The notes under the pieces are model-generated. The model was not told where the DNA came from and made no database searches. It saw only the letters and a list, made by a program, of their open reading frames with translations. From an uncultured Methanosarcinaceae archaeon (GTDB lineage: Archaea; Halobacteriota; Methanosarcinia; Methanosarcinales; Methanosarcinaceae): a stretch of 64,000 nt of DNA. A program made the translations under genes and the position numbers. The DNA is taken from the NCBI GenBank assembly GCA_963727895.1, contig CAVSHT010000004.1:1-64000 (forward strand). Reading direction: 5' to 3'. Below, in pieces: positions 2,813 through 41,471 of the stretch (position 1 is the first letter of the stretch; each line of letters opens with the position of its first letter).

Positions 2813-3668
2813 AGTTCCGTTGCAAAAAATATCTGCTAGGGATATACTAAAATAAAAATGAAATCAAAGATGGTGATATACTATCTAATTCCTTTAAATG
2901 GAAACACTTTGTAAGTGAAATTATCTTATTGAATGTGAGATGGTACTTAAAATACCCACTTAGCTATAGAAATTTAAAGGACATGATGGCAGAAAGGGGA
3001 GTAGAAGTTGATCACAGTACTATCATGAGATGGGTACATCAATATTCACCTGAAATAGAAAAGAAGGTCAGAAGACATTTAAGACCAACTAATAACTCTT
3101 GGAGAGTTGATGAGACTTACGTAAAAGTGAAAGGTGAATGGAAATATTTTTACCGAGCAGTTGACTCAAATGGAGATACAATTGATTTCGTGTTAAGTGC
3201 AAAACGAGACCAAGAAGCAGCGAACAGATTCTTCAAAAAAGCTTTGAACTCTAATCATAATCAAATTCCAAGAGTAATAACAGTTGACAAAAATCCAGCT
3301 TATCCACCTGCTATAGATAAACTGAAAAATGATAAAATACTACCTATAAACGTAGGCATTCGACAAATCAAGTATTTGAATAACATTATAGAACAAGATC
3401 ATAGATCCATTAAACGAATAGTTAATCTAATGTTAGGATTTCAGTCTTTTCGATCTGCCAACAAAACTTTAAAAGGAATTGAAGCTATGAATATGGTTAA
3501 AAAAGGACAAATCAAAAATTTTAATTATTCTGGTCTTAATGAAGCTAAATATATTAATCAATTATTTAGAATAGTTCTATAATATTGACACATTTTCTTA
3601 AATATTTGTACTTTTGTTTATTGATTATGGATTTACATGCTTATTCTGAGATTTTTTGCAAAGGAACC
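2813..3668 (+). mobile_element. IS6-family element; transposase start codon mutated
   Basis: TIR (G)GTTCCGTTGCAAAAA at both ends; DDE transposase motifs WRVDETY, ITVDKNP, NNIIEQDHR; ATG of other copies is ATA here. Confidence 0.95.
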
Positions 3669-3934
3669 GTTTTTCCACCTCAGTACAGAACTGTGAAGTA
3701 GTACCAATACAAAAAATTGATATTGACAACAATGAAACTCAATTGGGGTACATACCATGTTATCAGCTTCTTGCCCCTGAAGTGGACAGCCTTCTAACGC
3801 TTGAGCCTACTATTTCTTCAAGAACCATTGCCGAAAGACTTAACATAGGGAAGGATACGGCGCTAAAAGCCAAAAAATACATTAGAGATTCAAGAGCTTC
3901 CAGGTATCAAGAAAAAACGCCTGGATTAATATGA
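3669..3934 (+). pseudogene. C-terminal fragment of an HTH-containing backbone protein, truncated by IS6 (copy 1)
   Basis: SSRTIAERLNIGKDTALKAKK is HTH-like; homologous to 35738..36017; begins directly at the IS6 end. Confidence 0.6.
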
Positions 3935-4119: not shown

Positions 4120-4822
4120 GCTACTTATTATTAGCTAGACATGCGTCTGAGAAGACCAGACAGACAGACAAAACAAAAGTATGTTAGTATTCTGTTTTTG
4201 TCGCAAGAAGGGGAATTGCCAGCGACCAGCCAGTCAGCCAGAAGAACCGCTGCGATAAATAAGCACGTCTGCTTATAGTATTACAAATGTTTTCATATAT
4301 AGAATAATATATTATACAGTGTATCACCTAGGTATCAACTCAAACTCGGGAGTGCAAGTTTCACGCACTAACTTTTTATTGCACTCACCCTCCAGATAAA
4401 ACGCCTTTTCTTCGGGCACTCTCTCTGTTGGGGTTATAGTTTTCCCCAACAGGCAATCCTTGTTTTGAAATATTTTTAAAAACCTAGTTTTAAGGCTCTA
4501 GGATGGTTCTGAAAATATGGTAAGTTAATTGCTTACGGCTTAGGAGTTTGAGGCTCTACGGGCAAATTTGGAGCGTTGGTTTCATCCAATGAAATACTGT
4601 GACCGAATGTAACCAGGTAACGTATTTTGCAAGATTTATCTCAAAATAGATTTTTTTACTTTATTTTTAATAATTTTATTTTTATATATCATACACTAAC
4701 CATCTCAAATTTAGACTATTTTCAGTCAATACTTAACTTTAATCTTAGAAGACTTTTTCATTTATTATCAGGATTTCATGAGATCCTTGTTTTTGCTTTC
4801 AACCTTCTTTCTGGCTTGTCTG
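4120..4822. other. conserved non-coding block between convergent genes; candidate origin/cis-acting site (copy 1)
   Basis: Blocks shared with 36200-37080: CAGA repeats, CAGCCAGAAGAAC, TTTTAAGGCTCTAGGA...GGAGTTTGAGGCT, CAAGATTTATCTCAAAA. Function is inferred. Confidence 0.4.
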
Positions 4823-5530
4823 TTACGCAGTGACGGTTTGTTCCGGTCCTGAGAGCCAGGGGGAAAGTTCTTCATCTGGGATTTGTCTTGCGAAAATTAA
4901 TCTAAGTTCGTTTCTGCCATGATCTGCTTTATCGATGAATATATCATTAGTAGAACATCTTTTTTCAGCTGCCGTGAAAACATCTCGTTTTAGCTTTCTA
5001 ATATTCTTTGTAGACTCAGGCTGGAACTCTTCAGGCAGATAATTCTCAACGAATTTTTTAAAATCCCTTGAATCCATGATCCTGGAATCTATGTTTGCAA
5101 AAGGAGATGCAGCTTTAGGAAGCATGTCCTTATTGTTTTTCATATACTCAACAAGAAAATCAGCGCGAATTTCTGTGATATTTTTAGAAGGAGAAATTAG
5201 AGATCGATCAATAAGTTCAGGTTTTAATGTAGTGTTTATTTTAGAGACCATGTCGTTAAGCTTGGTTATTTGTTCAGGAATAGTAGATTCGTGGTCTTCA
5301 TCATCATAAGAAAAGTCATCAATTCCAAGAATAGTTTCAATTTCTGCAAGTCTTTGAATCGGCCTTATTTCCGAAGTTGCAAGATTAGCATTGAATTTTG
5401 TCTTAATTTCTTCCTGGAATTCAAGATCTTCATTAATTAGATATCTTGCAAAACCTTTCAGTGCCTCAATAAAACCTGGATCTGAAAAAAAGTGCATAAA
5501 CTCTTCAGGTACATAATCAGCGAGGCTCAT
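4823..5530 (-). CDS. conserved plasmid/provirus backbone protein, 235 aa (possible C-terminal winged helix), copy 1
   Basis: Intact ORF with GGAGG RBS; clearly homologous to 37081..37782 with many silent changes. Confidence 0.85.
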   Translation of the reverse strand: MSLADYVPEEFMHFFSDPGFIEALKGFARYLINEDLEFQEEIKTKFNANLATSEIRPIQRLAEIETILGIDDFSYDDEDHESTIPEQITKLNDMVSKINTTLKPELIDRSLISPSKNITEIRADFLVEYMKNNKDMLPKAASPFANIDSRIMDSRDFKKFVENYLPEEFQPESTKNIRKLKRDVFTAAEKRCSTNDIFIDKADHGRNELRLIFARQIPDEELSPWLSGPEQTVTA

Positions 5531-5613
5531 ATAAAGCCTCCTGAGGTCAAACTAGGGTCAAAAAACGGCACGAAAAGTATATAAGCAAAGCTGTACTTGT
5601 TATTATTGATCAT
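5527..5613 (-). CDS. 28-aa leader peptide MINNNKYSFAYILFVPFFDPSLTSGGFI, ATGA-coupled to the 235-aa gene
   Basis: GAGGAG RBS; its TGA overlaps the downstream ATG; same length, frame and overlap at 37779..37865. Confidence 0.7.
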   Translation of the reverse strand: MINNNKYSFAYILFVPFFDPSLTSGGFI

Positions 5614-5700
5614 GTCTTAGTTCTCCTCTATACAGGGGATCTGAGGTTACAAGGTCGAAGCTGTAACCTCAACTAATAATCTTTATTTGTTCTTTTTTGT
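5605..5700 (+). ncRNA. candidate cis-antisense RNA with two hairpins (copy 1)
   Basis: BRE/TATA GAAAAG-TATATAAG at 5572-5585; hairpins TCCTCT/AGGGGA and TGAGGTTACA/TGTAACCTCA (5642-5671); T-rich tail. Boundaries are estimated. Confidence 0.5.
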
Positions 5701-5835
5701 TATTATTATTCTGGTTCCGTCCGTGTCAATTTCTACCTTTTCTCCTTTTTGCAAGTCGAACTTGTCACGGAGAAATGCAGGCAGATACACAAATACTCGA
5801 TTTTTTTTATCTTTTAATATTGTCATCTCTGCCAT
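5683..5835 (-). CDS. AbrB/MazE/SpoVT-type DNA-binding protein, 50 aa (not in the ORF track)
   Basis: Manual translation: MAEMTILKDKKNRVFVYLPAFLRDKFDLQKGEKVEIDTDGTRIIITKKNK, with the typical 'V.LP..LR....L..G..V.I' pattern. Confidence 0.8.
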   Translation of the reverse strand: MAEMTILKDKKNRVFVYLPAFLRDKFDLQKGEKVEIDTDGTRIIITKKNK

Positions 5836-5970
5836 GCATAGACATATAGCTAGACACATATTTAATACTTTTTGTTTTATCAGTAGTTCCTTTTCTTTCT
5901 CTTCTTGTCATTTTACAATACCTACTCACTTTTGAGCGCAGCAAAAATAGTAGGAAAAGCAAAAACAAGT

Positions 5971-14094: not shown

Positions 14095-14951
14095 GGTTCC
14101 GTTGCAAAAAATATCTGTTAAGGATATAATCAAATAAAAGGGAAGTAAAGGATAATGACATGCTATCTAATCCCTTTAAATGGAAGCATTTTGTGGGTGA
14201 AATTATTTTATTGAATGTTAGATGGTACTTAAAATATCCATTAAGTTATCGAAATTTAAAGGAAATGATGGCAGAAAGGGGAGTAGAAGTTGATCACAGT
14301 ACTATCATGAGATGGGTACATCAATATTCACCTGAAATTGAAAAAAAGGTCAGAAGGCATTTAAGACCAACAAACGACTCTTGGAGAGTTGATGAAACTT
14401 ATATCAGAATTAAAGGTAAATGGAAATATTTTTACCGAGCAGTTGACTCAAATGGAGATACAATTGATTTTATGTTAAGTGCAAAACGAGACCAAAAAGC
14501 AGCGAAACAGATTCTTCAAAAAAGCTTTGAATTCTAATCATAATCAAATTCCAAGAGTAATAACAGTTGATAAAAATCCAGCTTATCCACCTGCTATAAA
14601 TAAACTGAAAAATGATAAAATACTACCTATAAACGTAGGCATTCGACAAATCAAGTATTTGAATAACATTATAGAACAAGATCATAGATCCATTAAACGA
14701 ATAGTTAATCCAATGTTAGGATTTCAGTCTTTTAACACAGCTATTAAAACTTTAAAAGGAATTGAAGCGATGAATATGATTAAAAAAGGACAAGTCAAGA
14801 ATCTAAATTACTCTGGTCTTAATGAAGCTAAATATATTAATCAATTATTTGGAATAGTTCTATAATATTGATACATCTTCTTGAATATTTTAACTTCTGT
14901 TCATTGTCTATAGATTTACATGCTTATTCTGAGATTTTTTGCAACGGAACC
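14095..14951 (+). mobile_element. IS6-family element, transposase frameshifted
   Basis: Both TIRs; +1 A near 14505 splits the ORF into 14160..14537 and 14479..14865. Confidence 0.95.
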
Positions 14952-15137: not shown

Positions 15138-17727
15138 TTATCCGTTCTTCATATTTTGCTCTTCCTTCAGCCGCCCGTTGCTGGTGTTCTGATGAGAAAA
15201 GCTGGTGGTTTGATCCAGCCAGGCTTTAAGGTTCATCCCTCTTTGTATAGCATGGTCCCCAACTGCCTTGCTTAATTGACCTATGTTTGTCTTTGCTCCA
15301 ATGAACACAACATGATCATATTTACCCATAGTATTCTTTAATTTCTCCACAAGCTCGTCATGATCATGACTTTCTGGATGTTCATACTCAAAACCATAAC
15401 TCTCTTTTCCTAACATGGCAGACACGTCCACATCATTGTTATGGTGAACTTCGATATCTGTAAATTCTGGTGTAGCTGTTAATATTCCCGCCCATTGAAC
15501 AACAGAGAAATAATGGTCATGCGTCTGGTTCCCGAAGTTTCCATCATATTTTTTAACCTGAATCTTAATAGATCCATCCTCAGCAATTAAACTATCATGC
15601 GCCCAACAACTGATGTTTCCACGACTTAGAATGTTCTGTGGCGTATATTTCACATATCCTAGCCTCTGTAGAGTGAAATCTACATCTTCGCCTTCGATCC
15701 AATCAAGGAATATAACTTTATTCATTTTTGCAAGTTCAATATATTCTCCTTTAATCTTTCCACCAGCAACGGGAGCTGAAGTATCACCTGATGGAGTGAT
15801 TTTCTCTGTCTCAATTTCTTCTTTGTATTTCCCTTTAATTATCGCGTCTTCTTTTGGTGTAGCATGAAACGCAAGTGGAGCGTGAACGTCCCCAATTTTG
15901 ACAATACCTTGACCTTTGGAATCCGTTCTAAGCTCCTTTACAGCCGAATCATCAAGCATTAGGAAATCTTTAATGTTAAGATATTGACTTCGGATCTAAT
16001 TCATAACCTAGAACAATCTTGATAGGTGTATTGGTCATAAATTCTTCTGAGAGTTTGGCTTTTTCCAAATCAGAAAATTGCTGCGTAGCGAAGATCATGC
16101 CTATATCATAACTTCTGCCCTGTGTGAGGATTTTAAGAACCATGCTGGAAAGCTGAGGATCTCGCAGAAACGCGCCCCCTTCATCGATTGCAATAGTCAC
16201 ACCCTTTTTATTACCTGTGGAAAAATAAGTTATAATCATTTCAGTAACCAGAGCGTTCATAGCTTCCTTAATCATATCTAGAACGTTGACAAGATCGATA
16301 ACGGTAAATCCTTTTGATAAATCAATATCAGTTTGCCTGTTCATGTATGTTAGAGTCCCATCTTCCTCAAAGTAATAAGTCTTCCTTAGAAGTGCCTGGG
16401 CTGCTTCTGAAACTTCCGAATCTTTCGATTCTTTATCTTCTCTCCAAACTCTAACAAGGTCTTTCATTAATGGAAAATCCTTATTCATCCATGATTTTGG
16501 ATCATTTCTAAAGATGTCAAAGCATTTGTAAGTCCGATTGAGCGATTTATCAAGGTACGCCTCCATATTGGGGCTAAACGCATCTTTGAACCACATTTTG
16601 AAGAAGTTGTACACAAAAACTTTCTGCCTATCGTATATTGCAGCAGCTTCTAGGGCAGTCAACCCCTTTCCTGTGTGTAAGATTTGCAGCGAGTTAATAT
16701 TCTTACCGCCTGGACCAACGTTGATTATACATGAATCACGTGAAAAATAATTAGCCATGTCAAGGTAACGTGTTTTCCCATCATCCTTCACTGTAATATA
16801 TACTACATTTCTACCCGATGTATAGAGCCTTCCGAGAATTCCAAGTGTGAAATACGTTTTCCCAGAACCGGAATTCCCTATCAGACACATATGCTGATTT
16901 GCTCTTGCTTCTAACTCTACAACAATTGGTTTTCCGGTCTTTCTATTATCCCCAATATACAACTCCTTCGTGCCTTTTGTTAAGCTATTGTCAGGGTTTT
17001 TACAAGGGCACAGACTCCCTACAAAGCTGGAAACCATGTCCACGAAAGTGAACTCTTCAAAATTGGGATATCCTTGACCAGCTCTGTAAGTTTCAAGTAC
17101 TTTCCTAGAAGGGTAAGATCCATAGACTCTATGAGAGTTCAGCACGACCTTAATACGGCTTTTTGCCTTTCTCATTGCACTAGCATCCTCTGCTCATACC
17201 GTAATGATATAAGCAGTGTGACATAATTTCTCTTCATTGTTGTGTAGTCGTTCAATCGTTGCTGCCATATCCCTAGCATCTAATTGCTGAACTATTGCAG
17301 TCATTCCGAGAGGGTTGTTTCTCTCTGTACTGTTTTGGTTGACCTTGTTTCTGAATATTGCATCCTGTAACAACAATTGAGCTTCATGCGTTGGTATCGG
17401 AACAATACCAAAAGATATGGAAATTACCACCCCCTCGATACCAATCTTCATTAGTTTTTCCAAGAAATCTGGCTTAATGTAGCCGGGGTATCCATCTGTG
17501 GAAAGCTGAGGAAGCCCTACTATGATGCACTCCACTAGCATACCATTAACTTCTAGATAATCCTCTGAAACGACTATCTTATCTGGAGATATCAATCTGG
17601 AATAGTTGTTCCACCATAATTGATTTTCAGCGTTTATTTTTGCGTCTTCAACACGTCTGTTCAAATGAGTGAACTTAGTTCTTATTGGATTTACAAGTCT
17701 GTTGTTAATAGTTCCTGCAACACTCAT
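15138..17727 (-). pseudogene. VirB4/TraC-like conjugative ATPase, broken into three frames
   Basis: NQHMCLIGNSGSGKT (Walker A), IAIDEGG (Walker B), QGRSYDIGMIFATQQ; contiguous ORFs 17194..17727, 15976..17175 and 15138..15959. Confidence 0.8.
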
Positions 17728-18597
17728 TTAAATCACCACTGGTAAAGCCATCTGTCTATATTCCTGTGCAATTTTCATCCTGTCAGTAAGCTTTGATATC
17801 TGCTTCATTCCTGCATCTGTGAGGCTATCAACTAGACCTGGAAATTCAGAATCCATCTGGTCAATTGCATCTTGCAAATTATCATAAACTCCAAGCCCAA
17901 AGAAGGCACAGAACGTCCATTCAATGTCTTTCGTGTTCTTATCTCGGATCATTTCATAGATAGAATACAGGTACTCATACACTTTTTTGTTAACGCCTCT
18001 CTTGTTCATCATTTTCAGTAGCTTTTCCAGCAGCGGTTTTCTAAGAGTCTGCCTTGAAATAGCAATGAATTTGATAGAGGTATTTCCTGCAAGTCCGTCA
18101 ATAACTTCCTGCATCCTCAGACCATGCGCGTCTTCGTCTTCATCTTGAACTTGTGGAGGGACGAACTTGATCAAAAGACCGTAATGGTTGTCAAGAAACT
18201 GAATCAGTCCATCTTCGTGGATATTCTTGAGAGGAAACACGTCTTCCAAAAATTTAAGCTCTGTATCATATCTGGCTATTGTGTGAAGTCCTGAATATCC
18301 ATCAAAGAAGAATTTAAGAAAAAGAATGGATTTTTCCAGCTTGCTTTCAGTTGATGCATATTTGTAATACAATCCCCACCAATCAATCAAAGTGGCAACG
18401 ACTAAGCACTCAATTATACTAGATTCAACGAACGCCAGAGGGAGAACAATGAATACGCTAACAAAGACCCACCCCACAACGACCCCGAAGGATTTTAAAG
18501 TAGCTCCGCCGTGTGCTTTATCCTTAACCTTCCTAATTATTTTTGGAGCATTTGCACTATAAACACTTAATCCAGTTTGTGAACTTGTAGATTCCAT
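17728..18597 (-). CDS. membrane protein of the conjugation cluster (two N-terminal TMs, VirB3/TcpE-like position)
   Basis: Abuts the ATPase gene; TM pair followed by a soluble domain; family assigned from context only. Confidence 0.6.
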   Translation of the reverse strand: MESTSSQTGLSVYSANAPKIIRKVKDKAHGGATLKSFGVVVGWVFVSVFIVLPLAFVESSIIECLVVATLIDWWGLYYKYASTESKLEKSILFLKFFFDGYSGLHTIARYDTELKFLEDVFPLKNIHEDGLIQFLDNHYGLLIKFVPPQVQDEDEDAHGLRMQEVIDGLAGNTSIKFIAISRQTLRKPLLEKLLKMMNKRGVNKKVYEYLYSIYEMIRDKNTKDIEWTFCAFFGLGVYDNLQDAIDQMDSEFPGLVDSLTDAGMKQISKLTDRMKIAQEYRQMALPVVI

Positions 18598-19571
18598 TAT
18601 AATGCACCCCTGACCAATCTTTTACCTGTACTGAACGCTTTCGTGAATCCGAGCATAATAACAAGACTGATTCCGAATAGAATAATCAATAATCCAAGAT
18701 ATTCCGGAACTTGAAGCCAGCCTGGACTTTCATTAACAATGGCTAGCCCAAAAGCAGAGAAACTTACCAGTATGCACTGAAGAAGAGTGATTTTGCAAAA
18801 GTACCAGACCATTGATTTAGAAAACTTCAAGCCTGACCTGGTCACTGCGAGTGCTCCTAGAAGAATGTCACAACCTGCAATCAGATCCATTGCTAAAATT
18901 CGCATTCCAATAAAAAGCGACTCAATCCAGCAACCGGTATCCATTATACAATATAGGACCCACTGATTTTTTGTGACCTGGACAGCGTTTAGAACATCCC
19001 CCATACTTGTAAGGGTTAAACCACTGTTCAGTAGAATAACAAACTTGAAAAAATAGTGAATAAACAAGATTCCGATAAATGCCCTAATTAAGCCATGAAT
19101 ATACTCTGAAATCGGCGTATTAGTGTAAACATAGTGTGCTCTTTCTGCAAGACTGATATGAGCACCGCAGGAAAAGTTTACCACCGCAGCACCTCATAAC
19201 ACATACAGCACGAACAGGAACAATCCAATTAAAGCCGTTTTTAGTCGCATGGCTTTGACAGTTGGGCTTTGGTAAGGATCATGATTGTAAGCTGACATCA
19301 TATAAATTGTGCTTACACTTGGTCCATATTTTTCTTTGACCGCGGCTACCTGCTCCGAATAGTCATCTACTGAGGTATTGTTGGAAGTCGGTTTTCCTGT
19401 ATCATAGGAGTAATTGGTTGGGCTCTGCTCTGTTAAAGAATCTGCCCCGCTGATAAACACATCAATGAATCCATTTTTAACAGCCTGTTCAACCGCTTGC
19501 ACCGGATCAGCTGCCATCACCGGCATAACCCGTACTTGAGAGCAACAGGAGCACGAGGAGTACTTTAGCAA
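18597..19571 (-). pseudogene. polytopic membrane protein (VirB6/TrbL-like position), frameshifted
   Basis: ORFs 19194..19571 and 18597..19184 are adjacent; many TM segments; coupled to the next gene. Confidence 0.55.
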
Positions 19572-19859
19572 GCTTCATTTTTCCCTCCGCTCCTGTATTG
19601 CCTTGTTGAGTTCCTTTACTAAGTAAACTAGTAGAGTAAGCAGCTCTTCCAGCATTGCAAGGGCCACCTTAAACATCGTACATGCAATCCATCACAAAAA
19701 CTTGGCAAATAGCAGGGTTATCGTCAAAAACGGAGCTACCAGTAGCCCGATTATCCAGATGATTATATTCATCTGAAAGCCTCCAGGTTCCGGTAACTGC
19801 CAAAAACGAATATTCCAACAATTATAGCAAATAAAAGAGTCTGTGGGGGCAAGAGCTTC

Positions 19860-20270
19860 CAGAAACTAAGCGGTGCCTCTTCTTTAATCTCATAATTTGT
19901 GATGGGTATCTGATTGCCGTAAATATCATACTGGACGATCTGAACCTTAAATTTTATATCTCCAGGGCTGATTATTCAGGAATCACAAGTTGATTACCTG
20001 AAACGTTATCCTCAGGGTTCCAGTAATCTAATGATGAGATGTTTACAAATTTTACACCTTTCGGAGTTGTGTTTATAGTCCCTGTGTGGAGATAATGCCA
20101 TGTTTCAGAATTATTGAACTTGAAACAAACCTTCATTACATCGGGATTTTCAGGGACATAAACAACCACCTGCTTACTAAAAGAATTGTTCAAAATGGTC
20201 ACATAAGCAGTATTGCTTATAGCCGGACTGAAAGTCTCAGGTATCTTTTCAGTATCGAAATAATGAGAAA
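19860..20270 (-). pseudogene. fragment of an upstream gene of the conjugation cluster
   Basis: Beta-rich C-terminal part of ORF 19972..20550; the N-terminal part of that ORF is antisense to another remnant. Confidence 0.4.
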
Positions 20271-20274
20271 CTTC

Positions 20275-20466
20275 CGTTTTTGAGCACGTTAAACCGGTTT
20301 TAGAAGAAGAACTTGATATTTCTTTTGATGCAAGGCTCGCACTTCTGAACTTAGGCCAATTCAAAGACTTGCCGAGATTGAAACTGTTCTTGGGATTGAT
20401 GACTTTTCTTATGACGATGAAGAGCGAGAACCAACTATTCCTGAAAAAATGACAGCTACCTTTTAA
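20275..20466 (+). pseudogene. third, fragmentary homologue of the 233/235-aa backbone protein
   Basis: 20341..20466 reads TSELRPIQRLAEIETVLGIDDFSYDDEEREPTIPEK, matching TSEIRPIQRLAEIETILGIDDFSYDDEDHESTIPEQ. Confidence 0.85.
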
Positions 20467-21225
20467 TGTAAAATATTGGGATTTGAAAAATAGCAAAAGT
20501 ACTAAGATTTTACATTGACCCCTATTAGAACTCAGACAATAGTGTTTCAATAATGGGTGAGAATACTAAAAGTAGAGTTTCTACAATTAACGTTGTAATA
20601 AACAAAGTACTAAACATCATAAAAATATATAAAAAATAGAGAAATTAAAAGATATATATCCACAATTCCAGCTACACATTCTAAGCCAATTACAGCCATT
20701 CCTACAAACATAGGTATCCCAATCATCAATAGGCCTATGAAAGTCAAGCCATAAGCCAGAAAACAAGTAAAAAAGAAGACTAAAGGCTATAGAGGAAATT
20801 TTTACAGAAATTAAAACACATTGCCCGAATATTTTAACTTTTGTTCATTGTTTATGGATTTACATGCTTATTCTGAGATTTTTTGCAACGGAACCTCTCG
20901 GATTTGCAATCAATACTTGAGCTTTAGATTATGAAAGCAATTCTGAAAATTTTATGATTTTGAGAATAAAGTTGGTTTTGGGATGGCCTCAAGATTAAAA
21001 ATGTAAAATTATTAAATATGTTTTTATATCATTTATCACTTTTATTAAAAAGATCCAAATTATATCTAACTGTTGTGTATGCTGTAAATGTGTATAACTG
21101 CATACATAAACATGAAAATATAAGCCCAAAACATGAAAAAACAGAAACTGTCTTCAATGGTTCAAATAACAAACAAAACTTTCAGTTTTAATTTTAAGAC
21201 CATTTAAAAAAATAGGAGGATTAAC

Positions 21226-22600: not shown

Positions 22601-23456
22601 GGTTCCGTTGCAAAAAATATCTGTTAAGGATATAATCAAATAAAAGGGAAGTAAAGGATAATGACATGCTATCTAATCCCTTTAAATGGAAGCATTTTGT
22701 GGGTGAAATTATTTTATTGAATGTTAGATGGTACTTAAAATATCCATTAAGTTATCGAAATTTAAAGGAAATGATGACAGAAAAGGGAGTAGAAGTTGAT
22801 CACAGTACTATCATGAGATGGGTACATCAATATTCACCTGAAATTGAAAAAAAGGTCAGAAGGCATTTAAGACCAACTAATAACTCTTGGAGAGTTGATG
22901 AAACTTATATCAGAATTAAAGGTAAATGGAAATATTTTTACCGAGCAGTTGACTCAAATGGAGATACAATTGATTTTATGTTAAGTGCAAAACGAGACCA
23001 AAAAGCAGCGAACAGATTCTTCAAAAAAGCTTTGAATTCTAATCATAATCAAATTCCAAGAGTAATAACAGTTGATAAAAATCCAGCTTATCCACCTGCT
23101 ATAAATAAACTGAAAAATGATAAAATACTACCTATAAACGTAGGCATTCGACAAATCAAGTATTTGAATAACATTATAGAACAAGATCATAGATCCATTA
23201 AACGAATAGTTAATCCAATGTTAGGATTTCAGTCTTTTAACACAGCTATTAAAACTTTAAAAGGAATTGAAGCGATGAATATGATTAAAAAAGGACAAGT
23301 CAAGAATCTAAATTACTCTGGTCTTAATGAAGCTAAATATATTAATCAATTATTTGGAATAGTTCTATAATATTGATACATCTTCTTGAATATTTTAACT
23401 TCTGTTCATTGTCTATAGATTTACATGCTTATTCTGAGATTTTTTGCAACGGAACC
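22601..23456 (+). mobile_element. IS6-family element, intact transposase 22666..23370
   Basis: Both TIRs; full 234-aa DDE ORF. Confidence 0.97.
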
Positions 23457-26413: not shown

Positions 26414-27269
26414 GGTTCCGTTGCAAAAAATCTCAGAATAAGCATGTAAATCTATAGACAATGAACAGAAGTTAAAATATTCAAGAAGATGTATCAATAT
26501 TATAGAACTATTCCAAATAATTGATTAATATATTTAGCTTCATTAAGACCAGAGTAATTTAGATTCTTGACTTGTCCTTTTTTAATCATATTCATCGCTT
26601 CAATTCCTTTTAAAGTTTTAATAGCTGTGTTAAAAGACTGAAATCCTAACATTGGATTAACTATTCGTTTAATGGATCTATGATCTTGTTCTATAATGTT
26701 ATTCAAATACTTGATTTGTCGAATGCCTACGTTTATAGGTAGTATTTTATCATTTTTCAGTTTATTTATAGCAGGTGGATAAGCTGGATTTTTATCAACT
26801 GTTATTACTCTTGGAATTTGATTATGATTAGAATTCAAAGCTTTTTTGAAGAATCTGTTCGCTGCTTTTTGGTCTCGTTTTGCACTTAACATAAAATCAA
26901 TTGTATCTCCATTTGAGTCAACTGCTCGGTAAAAATATTTCCATTTACCTTTAATTCTGATATAAGTTTCATCAACTCTCCAAGAGTCGTTTGTTGGTCT
27001 TAAATGCCTTCTGACCTTTTTTTCAATTTCAGGTGAATATTGATGTACCCATCTCATGATAGTACTGTGATCAACTTCTACTCCCCTTTCTGCCATCATT
27101 TCCTTTAAATTTCGATAACTTAATGGATATTTTAAGTACCATCTAACATTCAATAAAATAATTTCACCCACAAAATGCTTCCATTTAAAGGGATTAGATA
27201 GCATGTCATTATCCTTTACTTCCCTTTTATTTGATTATATCCTTAACAGATATTTTTTGCAACGGAACC
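26414..27269 (-). mobile_element. IS6-family element, intact transposase 26500..27204
   Basis: Both TIRs; full 234-aa ORF. Confidence 0.97.
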
Positions 27270-34698: not shown

Positions 34699-35737
34699 TA
34701 AAATAAAAATGAAATCAAAGGTAGTGACATGCTATCTAATTCCTTTAAATGGAAGCACTTTGTAGGTGAAATTATCTTATTGAATGTTAGATGGTACTTA
34801 AAATATCCATTAAGTTATCGAAATTTAAAGGAAATGATGACAGAAAGAGGGGTAATAGTCAACCATACAACCATTATGAGATGGGTACATCAATACTCAC
34901 CTGAAATAGAAAAGAAGATCAGAAGACATTTAAGACCAACAAATGACTCTTGGAGAGTTGATGAAACTTACATCGGAGTTAAAGGTGAATGAAAATATTT
35001 TTACCGAGCAGTTGAATCAAATGGAGATACGATTGATTTCATGTTAAGTGCAAAACGAGACCAAAAAGCAGCAAACAGATTATTCAAAAAAGCTTTGAAC
35101 TCTAATCATAATCAAATTCCAAGAGTAATAACAGTTGACAAAAATCCAGCTTATCCACCTGCTATAAATAAACTGAAAAATGATAAAATACTACCTATAA
35201 ACGTAGGCATTAGACAAATCAAGTATTTGAATAACATTATAGAACAAGATCATAGATCCATTAAAAGAATAGTTAATCCAATGTTAGGATTTTAGTCTTT
35301 TCATACAGCCATTTGAACTCTAATCATAATCAAATTCCAAGAGTAATCACAGTTGACAAAAATCCAGCTTATCCACCTGCTATAAATAAACTGAAAAATG
35401 ATAAAATACTACCTATAAACGTAGGCATTAGACAAATCAAATATTTGAATAACATTATAGAACAAGATCATAGATCCATTAAAAGAATAGTTAATCCAAT
35501 GTTAGGATTTCAGTCTTTTCATACAGCCATTAAAACTTTAAAAGGAATTGAAGCGATGAATATGATTAAAAAAGAACAAGTCAAGAATCTAGATTACTCT
35601 GGCTTTAATGAAGCTAAATATATTAATCAATTATTTGGAATAGTTCTATAATATTGACACATCTTTTTGAATATTTTAACTTTTGTTTATTGATTATGGA
35701 TTTACATGCTTATTCTGAGATTTTTTGCAACGGAACC
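34699..35737 (+). mobile_element. IS6-family element, pseudogenised, with an internal 218-bp tandem duplication
   Basis: TGA at 34990-34992; 35094-35311 repeated from 35312; right TIR ends at 35737. Confidence 0.93.
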
Positions 35738-36017
35738 CTTAAGAATGCATAGTTTTTCCATCACATTACAGAACTGTGATAGAGTACCAATACAAAAAAT
35801 TGATACTGAAACCAATGAAACTCAAATTGGGTACATACCATATTACCAGCGTCTTGCCCCTGAAGTGGACAGCCTTCTAACGCTTGAACCCACACTTTCC
35901 GCAAGAGCCATTGCCGAAAGACTTAATATAGGAAAAGATACGGCGCTAAAAGCTATAAAATACATTAGAGATTCAAGAGCCTCCAGGTATCAAGAAAAAA
36001 CGCCTGGATTAATATGA
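35738..36017 (+). pseudogene. C-terminal HTH fragment truncated by IS6 (copy 2)
   Basis: Homologous to 3669..3934. Confidence 0.6.
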
Positions 36018-37080: not shown

Positions 37081-37782
37081 TTATGCAGTTACTGTCTGTT
37101 CCGGTGAACCTGTCAACCATAGCTCTTCAGTTGGAATTTGTCTTGCAAAAATCAACCTTAGCTCTTTTCTTCCGTGGTCTGCTTTATCGATAAATATATC
37201 ATTAGTTGCACATCTCTGTTCAACTGTCTCAAAAATATCACGTTTTAGTTTTCTCAGATTCTTCGTAGACTCAGGCTGGAATTCTTCAGGTAGATAATTC
37301 TCAACGAATTTTTTAAAGTCTCTGGAGTCTAGTACTCTAGTATCAATATTAGCAAAAGGTGAAACTGCTTTTGGGAGGTCAGTACTTTTTTTCATGTACT
37401 CAATGAGAAAATCAGCGCGAATTTCTGTGATATTTTTAGAAGGTGCTATAAGTGATCGATCAATAAGTTCAGGTTTTAACGTAGTGTTTATTTTAGACAC
37501 TAAATCGTTAAGCCTGGTTATCTGCATAGGAATAGTAGGTTCATGGTCTTCATCATCGTAAGAAAAGTCCTCAATTCCTAAAACAGTTTCAATTTCTGCA
37601 AGTCTCTGAACTGGTCTGATCTCAGAAGTTGCAAGATTAGCATTGAATTTTGTCTTAATTTCTTCCTGGAATTCAAGATCTTCGTTGATTAGATATCTTG
37701 TGAAACCTTTGAGTGCCTCAACAAATCCAGGCTGTTCAAAAAAGTGCATAAACTCTTCAGGTACATAATCAGCGAGACTCAT
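37081..37782 (-). CDS. conserved backbone protein, 233 aa, copy 2
   Basis: Intact; homologous to 4823..5530. Confidence 0.85.
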   Translation of the reverse strand: MSLADYVPEEFMHFFEQPGFVEALKGFTRYLINEDLEFQEEIKTKFNANLATSEIRPVQRLAEIETVLGIEDFSYDDEDHEPTIPMQITRLNDLVSKINTTLKPELIDRSLIAPSKNITEIRADFLIEYMKKSTDLPKAVSPFANIDTRVLDSRDFKKFVENYLPEEFQPESTKNLRKLKRDIFETVEQRCATNDIFIDKADHGRKELRLIFARQIPTEELWLTGSPEQTVTA

Positions 37783-37865
37783 AAAAAGCCTCCTGAGATC
37801 GTGATGTGTTCAAAAAACGATACGAAAATTATATAAGCAAAGCTGTTGTTGTAATTATTGTTCAT
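37779..37865 (-). CDS. 28-aa leader peptide MNNNYNNSFAYIIFVSFFEHITISGGFL
   Basis: AAGGAG RBS; TGA overlaps the ATG of the 233-aa gene; homologous to 5527..5613. Confidence 0.7.
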   Translation of the reverse strand: MNNNYNNSFAYIIFVSFFEHITISGGFL

Positions 37866-37950
37866 ATACTATAACTCCTTATCTACAAGGGGTAGGGGGT
37901 TACAGGGTCCAAGCTGTAACCTCAACAATTAATCTTTTTTAATCATTTCT
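37857..37950 (+). ncRNA. candidate cis-antisense RNA (copy 2)
   Basis: GAAAA-TTATATAA at 37824-37836; hairpins CTCCTT/AAGGGG and GGGGTTACAG/CTGTAACCTC (37896-37923); T-run after. Confidence 0.5.
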
Positions 37951-38231
37951 TCTAGTTTTTCATTCACTATATATTGTTCAAGAAGCATTATTGCCTCTAC
38001 CTTTTTATTATTTAAATTCAGTTTATAATATTGAATTTGTCCGGCCTTTCCAGCCTTTACAATAATATCGTCTTTTAGCAAATTTTTAACATATTTGATT
38101 ACTGCAACTCTCGAGACATCTGTCATTCTGGCAATGTCAGCTAAATACAATTTATCATTATAATTTTCAACGAATGCTTCCAACACTCTTAATCGTGGAC
38201 TATCGCCTAATAATTCTGACAGCACGCTCAT
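37929..38231 (-). CDS. winged-HTH (ArsR/MarR-like) regulator
   Basis: LLGDSPRLRVLE...LADIARMTDVSRVAVIKYVKNLLKDDII...YYKLN. Confidence 0.85.
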   Translation of the reverse strand: MSVLSELLGDSPRLRVLEAFVENYNDKLYLADIARMTDVSRVAVIKYVKNLLKDDIIVKAGKAGQIQYYKLNLNNKKVEAIMLLEQYIVNEKLEEMIKKD

Positions 38232-38305: not shown

Positions 38306-38916
38306 GGTTCCGTTGCAAAAAATATTTGTTAAGGATATAATAAAATAAAAGGGAAGTAAAGGATAGTGATATGCTATCTAATCCCTTTAAATGGAAGCAT
38401 TTTGTAGGTGAAATTATTTTATTAAATGTCAGATGGTACTTAAAATACCCATTGAGTTATCGAAATTTAAAGGGAATGATGGCAGAAAGAGGGGTAATAG
38501 TCAACCATACAACCATTATGAGATGGGTACATCAATACTCATCTGAAATAGAAAAGAAGATCAGAAGGCATTTAAGACCAACAAATGACTCTTGGAGAGT
38601 TGATGAAACTTACATCGGAGTTAAAGGTGAATGAAAGTATTTTTACCGAGCAGTTGAATCAAATGGAGATACAATTGATTTCATGTTAAGTGCAAAACGA
38701 GACCAAAAAGCAGCGAACAGATTCTTCAAAAAAGCTTTGAACTCTAATCATAATCAAATTCCAAGAGTAATCACAGTTGACAAAAATCCAGCTTATCCAC
38801 CTGCTATAAATAAACTGAAAAATGATAAAATACTACCTATAAACGTAGGCATTCGACAAATCAAGTATTTGAATAACATTATAGAACAAGATCATAGATC
38901 CATTAAAAGAATAGTT
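38306..38916 (+). mobile_element. IS6-family element, 3'-truncated by IS1
   Basis: Left TIR; same Trp-to-TGA stop as the 34699 copy. Confidence 0.92.
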
Positions 38917-39674
38917 GGTATTGTTACTTAACTATATCTAGTTCTTTATTTCTGTATTTCATCAATAGAATAACCGAGTACTTTAGCATTTCAAGACTCT
39001 TCGTATAACACTGACTCTTCGTATAACACTTTGTCTTTCTTCTCAACCTTGCCAGAAAGTGCCTCAATATGCTGTTATATCCTTCAACAGTATACGTTTT
39101 TGCTTTTGATTGAGTATGGATCTTTTCTGGAATAAACTCTGCATATGCTCTCCAGTGATCGGTCATCACTTCTCCAATCTCTTTTTTCTTCAATTTTTCC
39201 CAGAGTAATTTTCCAGTTTCCGTTCCTCTGCTACCAAAAGAGCAGTTGATGAACTTTTTCCCAACTCTATCAACAGCAATCCAGATACAGCAATATTTTT
39301 TTTGTTACCGATGTAAGTGTGCATTTCATCCATTTCAACAATAGATATCTCATTTTCACTTTTTAGGTTCTTTCACTCCTGACCAAATTTCTTGATCCAT
39401 TTTTGGACAGAAACATGACTTACCCCTAAAACTCTTTCTATTGAGCGGAAGCCCAATCCTTCAAGATAGAGTTGTAAAGCCTGTCTTTTTACAGAAGCGG
39501 AAAAAGCAGTTGATTTTAGCTCTACTGTATAGTTATAGCCACAATCAGAGCATTTGTACCGTTGACGCCCGCCAACTATACCATTCTTTTTGTGACTGGA
39601 ACTATTGCATCTGGGGCGGTTCATGAAGAAATATACTTTCTAATAGTATATAACAATGTTTAATTACCAATGCC
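38917..39674 (-). mobile_element. IS1-family element, pseudogenised
   Basis: Both ends; stop after KFGQE; 18-bp tandem duplication GACTCTTCGTATAACACT near 38995-39030. Confidence 0.93.
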
Positions 39675-40603: not shown

Positions 40604-41471
40604 GGTTCCGTTGCAAAAAATATCTGCTAAGGATATAATTAAAATAAAAATGAAATCAAAGGTAGTGACATGCTATCTAATTCCTTTAAATGGAAGCACT
40701 TTGTAGGTGAAATTATCTTATTGAATGTTAGATGGTACTTAAAATATCCATTAAGTTATCGAAATTTAAAGGAAATGATGACAGAAAGAGGGGTAATAGT
40801 CAACCATACAACCATTATGAGATGGGTACATCAATACTCACCTGAAATAGAAAAGAAGGTCAGAAGACATTTAAGACCAACAAACGACTCTTGGAGAGTT
40901 GATGAAACTTACATCGGAGTTAAAGGTAAATGGAAATATTTTTATCGAGCAGTTGACTCAAATGGAGATACAATTGATTTCATGTTGAGTGCAAAACGAA
41001 ATAAAAAAGCAGCAAACAGATTCTTCAAAAAAGCTTTGAACTCTAATCATAATCAAATTCCAAGAGTAATAACAATTGATAAAAATCCAGCTTATCCACC
41101 TGCTATAGATAAACTAAAAAATGACAAACTACTACCTATAAACGTAGGCATTCGACAAATCAAGTATTTGAATAACATTATAGAACAGGATCATAGATCC
41201 ATTAAACGAATAGTTAATCCAATGTTAGGATTTCAGTCTTTTAACACAGCTATTAAGACTTTAAAAGGAATTGAAGCGATGAATATGATTAAAAAAGAAC
41301 AAGTCAAGAATCTAAATTACTCTAGTCTTAATGAAGCTAAATATGTTAATCAATTATTTGGAATAGTTCTATTAATTAATTAATTAATTAATTAATCTTT
41401 GTGAATATTTTAACTTTTGTTTATTATCCATAGACTTACATGCTTATTCTGAGATTTTTTGCAACGGAACC
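40604..41471 (+). mobile_element. IS6-family element with an open transposase ORF 40670..41383
   Basis: Both TIRs; (ATTA)n expansion at the stop codon. Confidence 0.96.

Follow-up and report, generated by a model that had tools for sequence, protein, structure and literature searches.

A candidate antisense RNA with two conserved hairpins at the 5′ end of an accessory gene family in a methanogenic archaeon

Two gene copies and the features at their 5′ ends

The window, that is, the whole stretch of DNA analysed here, comprises 64,000 nucleotides of contig CAVSHT010000004.1 (assembly GCA_963727895.1) from an uncultured archaeon of the Methanosarcinaceae. It contains two copies, A and B, of a gene for a protein of about 235 amino acids, each preceded by a short leader open reading frame (ORF) whose stop codon overlaps the start of the main gene. 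The features of the two copies are listed below; the promoters, the antisense RNAs and their parts are predictions.

Copy A
4823..5530, minus strand: main gene, 235 aa, from the list of ORFs
5515..5544, minus strand: junction hairpin in the mRNA, main Shine–Dalgarno sequence paired to codons 2–4
5527..5613, minus strand: leader ORF, 28 codons, its TGA shared with the main ATG as ATGA
5571..5585, plus strand: predicted antisense promoter, BRE-like CGAAAAG and TATA-like TATATAAG
5605..5698, plus strand: predicted antisense RNA, ~77–91 nt; covariance-model match at 5605–5690, E 1.8e-6
5624–5639, plus strand: hairpin 1, the complement of the leader Shine–Dalgarno sequence
5643–5670, plus strand: hairpin 2
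5682–5698, plus strand: T-runs
5683..5859, minus strand: upstream gene, 58 aa, AbrB/MazE-like; Pfam PF04014, E 5.6e-6

Copy B
37081..37782, minus strand: main gene, 233 aa, sharing 87% identity with copy A
37779..37865, minus strand: leader ORF, 28 codons, ATGA overlap with the main start
37823..37836, plus strand: predicted antisense promoter, CGAAAA and TTATATAA
37860..37943, plus strand: predicted antisense RNA, ~81 nt; covariance-model match at 37861–37943, E 9.5e-8
37875–37892, plus strand: hairpin 1, the complement of the leader Shine–Dalgarno sequence
37896–37923, plus strand: hairpin 2
37935–37940, plus strand: T-run (T6)
37929..38231, minus strand: upstream gene, 100 aa, winged-HTH-like, overlapping the T-run with the end of its coding sequence

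The sequence features listed in an earlier inspection of the letters alone (the sequence-only reading) are all present at 5527–5700 and 37779–37950, and hairpin 1, which that reading took for an anti-Shine–Dalgarno element, is complementary to the leader Shine–Dalgarno sequence at both copies. The antisense promoter motifs of both copies lie within the leader ORFs. Transcription from them would start near G5608 in copy A, a position taken from the usual archaeal TATA-to-start spacing, and near G37860 in copy B; the complement of the leader start codon occupies positions 5611–5613 of the copy A RNA. The main AUG and the overlapping leader UGA are situated in the loop of the copy A junction hairpin, and the 43-nt junction folds with −16.2 kcal/mol (RNAfold, z −3.9). 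Homology between the copies ends shortly past the T-run, at ~5690 in copy A and ~37940 in copy B. The upstream gene of copy A, with its stop codon inside the T-run region, also matches TIGR01439 with E 1.2e-6, slightly below the cut-off of that family, and the upstream gene of copy B has weak Pfam matches (HTH_11, HTH_24 and MarR-type) and an ArsR-type NCBIfam match, all below cut-off.

The genome that carries the window (3.67 Mb) encodes McrA and contains 8 copies of the gene family, all chromosomal; degraded copies are represented by L007 and by a fragment at 20299–20457. Elsewhere the family was found in 5 of 36 sister genomes and at 47 metagenome loci, with 213 cluster representatives, and is a patchy accessory family without a name. 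Its proteins are 190–240 aa long; their N-terminal half is helical, and a winged-helix domain lies in the C-terminal part. In the AlphaFold model of the copy A protein (mean pLDDT 76.3) this domain spans residues ~112–217, and VIA-align gave winged-helix matches with Z of 5–7.7. As far as the model indicates, the fold is generic only. The 235-aa protein belongs to no Pfam, PHROG or NCBIfam family, a Foldseek search of the PDB returned no row at E ≤ 0.001 (RepE rows were weak, E ~0.3), and neither the ESM Atlas nor a pattern scan of the genome contigs provided a functional lead. There was no match among 72,556 plasmid records, in the phage collection or in IMG/VR, and a Pfam search with 30 of the 150 listed distant representatives produced only two matches, both below cut-off. 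The suggestion of the sequence-only reading that the protein is a replication or toxic factor thus gained no support, as there is no domain family and only a generic winged-helix fold.

The 8 genome copies share no larger common backbone. The only neighbours common to copies are a 92–103-aa HTH-like ORF (5 copies) and insertion sequences; adjacent IS6/IS240 transposases are separate genes, no transposase domain was detected in the 235-aa protein by Pfam or NCBIfam, and no terminal repeats or other sign of a self-mobile cassette were found. Depending on the locus, the upstream gene is AbrB-like (copy A), winged-HTH (copy B) or zinc-ribbon-like (below cut-off), or there is ParE two genes away, or none. 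An upstream partner comparable to CopB, which had also been proposed, finds no support in view of this lack of conservation among loci.

Conservation of the element across the gene family

With E ≤ 1 as the threshold, a covariance model of the two-hairpin element (model R1, built from 7 sequences) matched 43 of the 65 loci of the gene family, and 42 of the 43 matches are antisense to the gene and located at its 5′ end. Some of the 22 loci with no match at this threshold are cut near the gene 5′ end. Scoring of 150 out of 2462 candidates with a further model (R2) detected exactly 7 matches in the 3.67-Mb genome, one per intact gene copy, the two in the window scoring E 1.8e-6 (copy A) and 9.5e-8 (copy B); the seven predicted antisense RNAs are 62–89% identical to one another. 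Across 150 further genomes from the same taxonomic family, screened under stricter filters and with 30 candidates scored per genome, R2 gave no match, a weak null result because the draw apparently contained none of the sister genomes in which the gene is known to occur. Rfam 15 yielded 0 matches at gathering scores for the window and 0 at E ≤ 10 for positions 5480–5760, and no description of the two-hairpin antisense element was found in a literature search.

MAFFT alignments of the module (A3–A5) were structurally inconsistent, and model-based alignments were used instead. In 38 distinct rows, 95.5% of the cells are paired compared to 77.4% in shuffles, and 0 of 500 shuffles reached the observed pairing, figures that do not represent probabilities because the alignment is fitted to the model structure and the sequences are mutually related. 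In the same fitted alignment, 12 of 13 pairs changed on both sides, including 8 of 8 in hairpin 2, where 96.9% of the cells are paired. When the 3′ partners are shifted by 1–3 columns, pairing falls to 43–75%. The stems of hairpin 2 fall into at least 10 classes, very variable in length and sequence, and the helix geometry is constant. By eye, UUGG or CUGG recurs in the hairpin-2 loop in roughly half of the rows.

Folding of single sequences gave z −1.96 for the plus strand and z −2.92 for the minus strand of copy A, where the antisense strand is not preferred, and −23.3 kcal/mol (z −3.64) for the plus strand compared with −14.8 kcal/mol (z −1.23) for the minus (sense) strand of copy B. The strength of the two-hairpin case lies in the comparison of loci, the folding of copy A being weak by itself. 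The plus-strand structure proposed in the sequence-only reading is upheld, for an RNA that is itself predicted, by the covariation of hairpin 2, by the strand asymmetry described below and by the matches at 43 of 65 loci; comparison of loci likewise supports an oligo-T end after the hairpins.

The patterns used to search for promoters on both strands were composed post hoc, with the data already inspected. A BRE+TATA-like motif is present within the 45 nt upstream of the model start at 29 of 37 unique loci, and at 0 of 37 on the opposite strand, in 1 of 259 gene-body windows and in 38 of 1850 shuffles, which supports the claim of a conserved plus-strand BRE/TATA inside the leader ORF. At 27 of the 37 loci the match starts within 22–45 nt upstream of the model start, at distances of 23–42 nt, with a spacing of 27–33 nt in 25 of these 27, and the motif is kept across at least 5 different peptide contexts. 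On the sense strand, a TATA-like heptamer occurs ~22 nt upstream of an A-run at 19 of 35 loci, a position from which the mRNA 5′ leader and the antisense RNA would nearly coincide in extent.

The relationship between the leader and the main gene was compared in 39 unique rows. The leader is part of the protein in 10 (fused form) and split off with a 4-nt overlap (ATGA or GTGA) in 22; of the remaining rows, 2 have a 1-nt overlap, a 1-nt gap separates the two frames in 2, and 3 could not be assigned. A split leader of 27–57 codons terminating at the main start is found in 26 of the 39 rows, confirming in further homologues the kept frame and stop/start overlap from which coupling is predicted. 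The split leaders differ in sequence, each has its own Shine–Dalgarno sequence, and a junction hairpin around the main start is usual (19 of 22 unique split junctions) with stem sequences that are unrelated. The first codons of the leader share homology with the N-terminus of those family members that have the fused form: the leader is a split-off N-terminus of the regulated protein. The earlier term "leader peptide" is accordingly apt for a short overlapping ORF and not for a free-standing invention. Conserved leader residues overlap the positions of the antisense promoter and of the main Shine–Dalgarno sequence, suggesting that what counts is that the leader is translated and not which peptide results. 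By inspection, the leaders are aromatic-rich and have no clear membrane span.

A candidate control mechanism and its alternatives

These comparisons lead us to propose that the module probably serves as a 5′ antisense translation control of an uncharacterised accessory gene family in a methanogenic archaeon. The comparison shows directly that the element and its promoter motif are conserved, that the structure covaries and favours one strand, that the reading frame and the overlap are kept, and that a junction hairpin recurs; from this we infer the synthesis of the antisense RNA, its pairing with the mRNA, and translational coupling. A canonical archaeal BRE/TATA within the first 10–15 codons of the first reading frame would direct outward transcription of a 75–90-nt RNA antisense to the mRNA. 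This RNA would begin a few bases ahead of the start-codon complement, carry an anti-Shine–Dalgarno sequence folded into hairpin 1, and continue through a second stable hairpin to an oligo-U end. As it would be fully complementary to the mRNA 5′ leader, pairing could keep ribosomes off the first frame or make the duplex a target for cleavage. The first frame would be the protein itself in about one quarter of the examined loci, and in the window copies and most others a 27–57-codon leader whose stop overlaps the main start. A small hairpin whose loop contains the AUG would hide the main Shine–Dalgarno sequence, so that main translation would need ribosomes completing the leader and the antisense block would thereby reach the main gene. 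Leader-independent translation is also possible, as the main gene has its own Shine–Dalgarno sequence.

The promoter motifs of the two strands point towards one another across ~110 nt, an arrangement that would also suit an antisense transcript acting elsewhere than at the ribosome site, through interference of convergent promoters or as a trans-acting or other small RNA (such as a primer or a mobile-element specificity determinant). With seven copies whose RNAs are 62–89% identical, cross-talk in trans is conceivable. We consider this scenario unlikely because the only invariant coding relation is that the element covers the Shine–Dalgarno sequence and start of the first frame, at 42 loci, and because a coupled leader with a junction hairpin is sensible mainly for control at translation initiation.

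The two strands differ in which imperfect pairs they would have to accommodate. In the alignment of 35 unique rows, again fitted to the model structure, Watson–Crick cells number 225, G·U cells 40 and A·C cells 0 in hairpin 2, and the corresponding numbers in hairpin 1 are 114, 44 and 7. The G·U-versus-A·C argument, previously made for the window alone, thus extends to the family, with 84 G·U against 7 A·C over the two helices. A stem finder with equal penalty for G·U and A·C returned 28 G·U compared to 2 A·C, and the antisense strand is the better fold in 31 of the 35 rows.

This asymmetry makes it quite improbable, in our estimate, that the structure works in the sense mRNA only, as a weak hairpin masking the Shine–Dalgarno sequence (CCCC against GGAG) together with an upstream hairpin, in the manner of a thermometer or of a leader that responds to a protein or a ligand, and that no antisense RNA is functional. 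Several observations are in keeping with such a leader: hairpin 1 sets the leader Shine–Dalgarno sequence against a C-run that is conserved, RNA thermometers typically pair imperfectly, the sense strand of copy A folds no worse than the antisense strand (z −2.92), and the sense TATA-like motif would put the entire element in the 5′ leader at 19 of 35 loci. However, each antisense G·U is a mismatch in the sense RNA (G·U to A·C of 40/0 in hairpin 2 and 44/7 in hairpin 1), 31 of 35 rows fold more stably as the antisense strand, and the antisense BRE/TATA at fixed spacing and the antisense oligo-T would be left unexplained.

The same counts bear on the idea that hairpin 2 is a DNA palindrome, an operator for a dimeric protein (the winged-helix protein or the small upstream regulator), with covariation reflecting co-evolving half-sites. 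Symmetric change is indeed also expected of palindromic operators, the downstream protein has a winged-helix domain, and small AbrB-like or HTH genes lie upstream of both window copies. A DNA palindrome, however, gives no reason for G·T without A·C on one strand (40/0; 28/2), the stems vary widely in length and sequence (at least 10 classes) with the helix geometry kept, and the upstream regulator is not conserved, which together make an operator very unlikely. That the leader ORFs are debris, the split forms being frameshifted pseudogenes of the fused form with an accidental overlap, would agree with the homology of their first codons to the fused N-termini and with a genome rich in insertion sequences and containing degraded copies (L007; the 20299–20457 fragment), but is scarcely credible when 26 of 39 unique rows keep a 27–57-codon leader ending exactly at the main start, the leaders are diverse with their own Shine–Dalgarno sequence and usually a junction hairpin, and the main ORFs are intact.

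Relation to known antisense systems and to RNA libraries

The antisense translation control proposed here resembles several bacterial circuits. In plasmid R1 and the IncFII group, the antisense RNA CopA acts on the target CopT, the leader tap is coupled to repA, and CopB is a repressor. The likeness consists of a small two-hairpin antisense RNA, here predicted, from the leader region and over the ribosome-binding site of the leader ORF, of a leader stop that overlaps or abuts the main start, and of a main ribosome-binding site masked by structure. The differences are the archaeal host with a BRE/TATA promoter and no sequence or model similarity (0 Rfam matches at E ≤ 10), the absence of a conserved CopB-like partner, a downstream protein with a generic winged helix only in place of a shown replication initiator, chromosomal copies that lie among insertion sequences and are absent from the plasmid collection, and a leader that is a split-off N-terminus of the regulated protein. 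Of the R1-like layout seen by the sequence-only reading, the antisense RNA and the coupled leader stand as predictions, and the CopB partner does not; Rfam gave no homology to the CopA family.

In IS10, RNA-OUT pairs with RNA-IN in the multicopy inhibition of the transposase. Common aspects are an outward antisense promoter inside the first codons of the regulated gene, an RNA (here predicted) over the Shine–Dalgarno sequence and start codon of the mRNA, and the presence of multiple copies (here 8). Unlike in IS10, the regulated protein has no transposase domain and there are no terminal repeats, and RNA-OUT involves no leader ORF or coupling. In the hok/sok/mok type I toxin–antitoxin system, an antisense RNA blocks translation of an overlapping frame further upstream, and expression of the downstream gene is coupled to that frame. 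A block of this kind is predicted here; the product, however, is a soluble winged-helix protein of 190–240 aa as opposed to a small membrane toxin, and the leaders are not transmembrane-like (by inspection), with no known toxicity.

Archaeal transcriptomes are rich in antisense RNAs, and we know of few whose mechanism has been worked out. The element matches the class of archaeal cis-antisense RNAs in promoter motif and genome type, the RNA itself being predicted. For the Sulfolobus plasmid pRN1, counter-transcripts were not confirmed: "antisense" did not occur in the papers checked for this. Short reading frames paired with cis-encoded antisense RNAs, and antisense RNAs overlapping mobile-element genes in RNA-seq data, are described in Methanosarcina mazei (PMC4152357; bioRxiv 10.1101/2025.10.28.685009). 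Five such pairs of a small-protein RNA (spRNA) and an antisense RNA are described there as intergenic, stand-alone small-protein RNAs that are mostly genus-wide, three of them leaderless (PMC4152357; bioRxiv 10.1101/2025.10.28.685009). The present element probably comes from the same genus and shares the combination of a short frame with a cis-encoded antisense RNA, here predicted. It differs from those pairs, going by these descriptions, in being confined to an accessory family of patchy distribution, present in 5 of 36 sister genomes, and in combining the 5′ end of a larger gene with a covarying two-hairpin structure.

A further speculation, which we regard as rather doubtful, is that the module provides dosage and incompatibility control of unrecognised mobile or plasmid-derived replicons of Methanosarcina. 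The winged-helix protein would be a limiting maintenance or initiator factor, and specificity groups would be set by hairpin 2 and the loops, which diverge fast, with each of the 7 co-resident copies controlled only by its own antisense RNA. If this were true, it would be the first R1/IncFII-type antisense "copy-control" circuit described in archaea, of independent origin and with the N-terminus of the regulated protein split into a coupled leader.

The element is a family-wide candidate supported by covariation, with a clear testable design that mirrors bacterial plasmid and transposon control circuits without kinship to them. If confirmed, it could supply Methanosarcina genetics with a small natural part for controlling translation, and could serve as a model of antisense pairing and translational coupling in archaea and as a case of a leader peptide arising by the split of the N-terminus of a regulated protein. 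It also points to an unnamed protein family that may be tightly regulated while multiplying in insertion-sequence-rich genome islands.

The region occurs in RNA libraries: the only public RNA runs that contain it are 11 metatranscriptome runs (word shares 0.07–0.17), available as unstranded contigs, which do not give strand, ends or level. In the 4 of these 11 runs that were compared with the region, the contigs are from relatives (90–99% similar) and cover 5455–5660, 5486–5659 and ~5606/5615–5793, with strand not given. The contig from ~5606 to 5793, which crosses the T-runs, fits an operon mRNA or read-through equally as well as a terminated small RNA. Two contigs, each from a different study, stop at 5659/5660, which lies within the hairpin-2 loop, and one begins at ~5606, near the predicted antisense start; we take these positions as hints at the level of coincidence.

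Structure and strand of the two-hairpin element

The window's two copies of the gene family (A and B) are 89% identical across the aligned kilobase, and the features that a sequence-only reading had listed at both (leader ORFs, BRE/TATA, two hairpins and a T-run) were all found in the sequence:

4823–5530, minus strand: copy A main gene, 235 aa
5527–5613, minus strand: copy A leader ORF, 28 codons, its TGA overlapping the main ATG
5571–5585, plus strand: copy A BRE-like and TATA-like motif
5624–5639, plus strand: copy A hairpin 1, complement of the leader's Shine-Dalgarno
5643–5670, plus strand: copy A hairpin 2
5682–5698, plus strand: copy A T-runs
37081–37782, minus strand: copy B main gene, 233 aa
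37779–37865, minus strand: copy B leader ORF, 28 codons, preceding the 233-aa gene
37823–37836, plus strand: copy B BRE-like and TATA-like motif
37875–37892, plus strand: copy B hairpin 1, complement of the leader's Shine-Dalgarno
37896–37923, plus strand: copy B hairpin 2
37935–37940, plus strand: copy B T-run

The likeness of the copies ends right beyond the T-run (~5690 and 37940), and the gene upstream of that point is a 58-aa AbrB/MazE-like one in copy A and a 100-aa winged-HTH-like one in copy B. About 335 nt 3' of the main gene (4488–4822) are also kept between the copies. This stretch contains, notably at 4770–4799, a palindrome (4770–4787) followed by a plus-strand T-run, which would suit a terminator for plus-strand transcription entering the gene's 3' end.

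The same module was recognized by eye in all seven intact genome copies and in distant relatives from sister genomes with 28–41% protein identity. A covariance model built from seven sequences (model R1) was run on all 65 loci then collected and returned 45 matches at E ≤ 1. Of these, 43 covered the full length, each in a different locus, and 42 of the 43 lie at the gene's 5' end on the strand opposite the gene. The 43rd, in L057, was discarded as far from the gene, and the two short extra matches are the palindromic hairpin 2 on the sense strand. At this threshold 22 of the 65 loci had no match, some of them being truncated near the gene start. A second model (R2), searched over the whole genome, recovered the seven intact copies alone (150 of 2462 candidates scored); under stricter filters it had no match in 150 other genomes of the taxonomic family, and Rfam contained no match to the element.

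Pairing was evaluated in a model-based alignment of 38 distinct rows. Standard pairs occupy 95.5% of cells compared with 77.4% in shuffles, and 0 of 500 shuffles reach the observed value, counts that are not probabilities because related rows were aligned by a fit to the structure. Changes on both sides were seen in 12 of 13 pairs, including 8 of 8 in hairpin 2, where 96.9% of cells pair. The same helix is preserved across at least ten stem sequences with no relation to one another. Pairing falls to 43–75% when partners are slid by 1–3 columns, and this sharp peak at zero slide is convincing.

The strand is settled by the wobble pairs. A G·U pair on one strand becomes a C·A mismatch when read on the other, and across 35 unique rows the counts of G·U and A·C cells are 40 and 0 for hairpin 2 and 44 and 7 for hairpin 1; the asymmetry first noticed in the window thus extends across the family, and the helices are maintained in the predicted plus-strand antisense RNA rather than in the mRNA. 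A stem finder penalizing G·U and A·C equally gave 28 versus 2, and the antisense orientation is the more stable fold in 31 of 35 rows. A DNA palindrome as the source of the helices is very unlikely, as it gives no reason for such asymmetry. One hairpin-1 position is U·G in 29 of 35 rows, which would leave the antisense hairpin intact and weaken the mirror hairpin that would otherwise mask the Shine-Dalgarno in the mRNA.

In about half of the rows the hairpin-2 loop (5652–5661 and 37906–37913 in the window) reads UUGG or CUGG by eye, resembling the YUNR U-turn motif known from antisense loops in bacteria; neither copy in the window has it.

Among the seven copies the module diverges faster than the coding body (mean identity 70.3% versus 82.7%; lower in 20 of 21 pairs). 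Faster divergence would limit cross-talk among copies, and it is also the ordinary behaviour of non-coding sequence.

Promoter motifs, predicted leader coupling and a proposed mechanism

The genome encodes McrA and therefore belongs to an archaeal methanogen, which makes it legitimate to read the motif as an archaeal promoter. The motif is conserved: in antisense orientation, 29 of 37 unique loci have a stretch rich in purines and then a TATA-like box upstream of the element. The controls gave 0 of 37 (opposite strand), 1 of 259 (gene-body windows) and 38 of 1850 (shuffles), a contrast that is inflated by a pattern written after the sequences had been seen, yet large. In 27 of 37 loci the box starts 22–45 nt before the model's first position, and in 25 of these 27–33 nt before it. 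The usual archaeal promoter-to-start spacing would place the antisense start near G5608 and G37860, a few bases ahead of the start codon's complement. The motif is retained across five or more differing peptide contexts, which argues for selection on DNA rather than peptide. On the sense strand, 19 of 35 loci have a TATA-like heptamer ~22 nt upstream of an A-run, so that the mRNA would start about where the antisense RNA ends and its 5' leader and the antisense RNA would be nearly co-extensive; where a small gene abuts the module, as in the window's two copies, the mRNA may be operonic instead.

The coupled leader proposed from the window was recovered as a layout in most rows. In 22 of 39 unique rows the first frame is an ORF of 28–57 codons whose stop shares a 4-nt overlap, ATGA or GTGA, with the next start, and in 10 it is the protein itself (191–240 aa). 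Of the others, 2 overlap by 1 nt, in 2 a single base separates stop from start, and 3 are unclassified. The first codons of the window's leaders resemble the N-terminus of the fused proteins, and by this comparison the leader is not an independent invention. Residues shared by the two leaders map to the antisense promoter and the main gene's Shine-Dalgarno; the peptide as such is probably unimportant. In four own-genome paralogues with a differing N-terminus (L004, C3:57.0–58.1 kb; L008, C3:43.6–44.7 kb; L005, C14:36.8–37.8 kb; L006, C4:80.4–81.4 kb) the main gene follows two small ORFs in succession; the second, of 31 aa, is what is left of the window-type N-terminus, and it too terminates in an ATGA overlap.

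The mRNA is predicted to form a small hairpin around the main start, in which the Shine-Dalgarno pairs with codons 2–4 and the AUG lies in the loop. Of 22 unique junctions, 19 have it, their stem sequences being unrelated (mean z −1.57 relative to mononucleotide shuffles), and as modelled it is the classical design for translational coupling.

These results lead us to consider antisense control a fairly probable reading. The antisense transcription, pairing, coupling and direction of effect that we infer would combine as follows. The antisense RNA would pair with the 5' leader, and either initiation at the first frame would be blocked or the duplex marked for cleavage. At loci with a leader as first frame, ribosomes completing it would open the junction hairpin and allow translation of the main gene, and the antisense block would thereby be relayed to that gene. 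Unstranded metatranscriptome contigs from related sequences offer at most a hint in favour of this model and in part sit uneasily with it: contig ends lie at 5659/5660 in two studies and at ~5606 in one, and one contig runs past the T-runs into the upstream gene.

The module would work like the CopA/tap/repA circuit of plasmid R1, hok/sok/mok and IS10 RNA-OUT, and is a member of none of them. The CopB-like partner expected from the R1 analogy was not borne out, the upstream gene not being conserved among loci, and the replication role that this analogy would give the main protein is hypothetical. For Methanosarcina mazei, one report describes cis-antisense RNAs detected by RNA-seq, some opposite transposase genes (PMC4152357), and another describes five small-ORF/antisense pairs, which differ in being stand-alone intergenic loci (bioRxiv 10.1101/2025.10.28.685009). 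We found no account in the open-access literature of an archaeal gene family whose 5' end has a coupled leader and an antisense RNA that is conserved and structured.

The gene family and its surroundings

The 235-aa protein belongs to no family in Pfam, PHROG or NCBIfam. Its own genome has eight long copies and one fragment, all in insertion-sequence-crowded regions. Within the genus, 5 of 36 sister genomes have relatives, compared with 0 of 24 genomes from five other families of the order. A protein database yielded 43 relatives, metagenome contigs 47 family loci and a clustered library 213 representatives (E ≤ 0.001); no member was found in plasmid, phage and IMG/VR collections. In the AlphaFold model (mean pLDDT 76.3) the N-terminal half is helical, an acidic linker is disordered, and the C-terminal domain (residues 112–217) resembles many winged-helix domains (Z 5–7.7), with no Foldseek match at E ≤ 0.001. 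The modelled winged helix probably binds DNA or protein.

The family copies form small islands between insertion sequences. The window contains many full or broken IS6/IS240-type transposase genes (2929–3582, 14160–14865, 22666–23370, 26500–27204, 34729–35651, 38371–38931 and 40670–41383), pieces of IS1, IS21 (IstB) and IS110, and a 168-nt insertion-sequence end segment (3501–3668) with over 100 occurrences in the genome. Beside five of eight copies, and convergent to the main gene, lies a 92–103-aa ORF with an HTH-like stretch and no family (3656–3934 and 35706–36017, plus strand); its start and the insertion-sequence end repeat overlap. Unannotated ORFs running in one direction form a cluster (15138–20550, minus strand) that includes a 399-aa AAA_10/TraG-like P-loop ATPase (15976–17175) with weak PHROG matches to terminase and FtsK; together with an adjoining 53-residue winged-helix-family fragment (20299–20457, plus strand) with two in-frame TGA codons, it may be the remnant of an integrated mobile element.

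At L010, a sister-genome locus, a gene for a ParE-type toxin (PF05016, E 4.2e-6) and its DUF7557 partner precede the module (516–1015); they form a type II toxin-antitoxin pair of the kind usual in mobile DNA. Two neighbours recur in a distant metagenome subgroup (L029–L032, L026, L051 and L052), a small secreted or membrane protein in divergent orientation and a 51–73-aa zinc-ribbon-like ORF ending 3–15 nt before the module, which hint at a compact mobile-element backbone.
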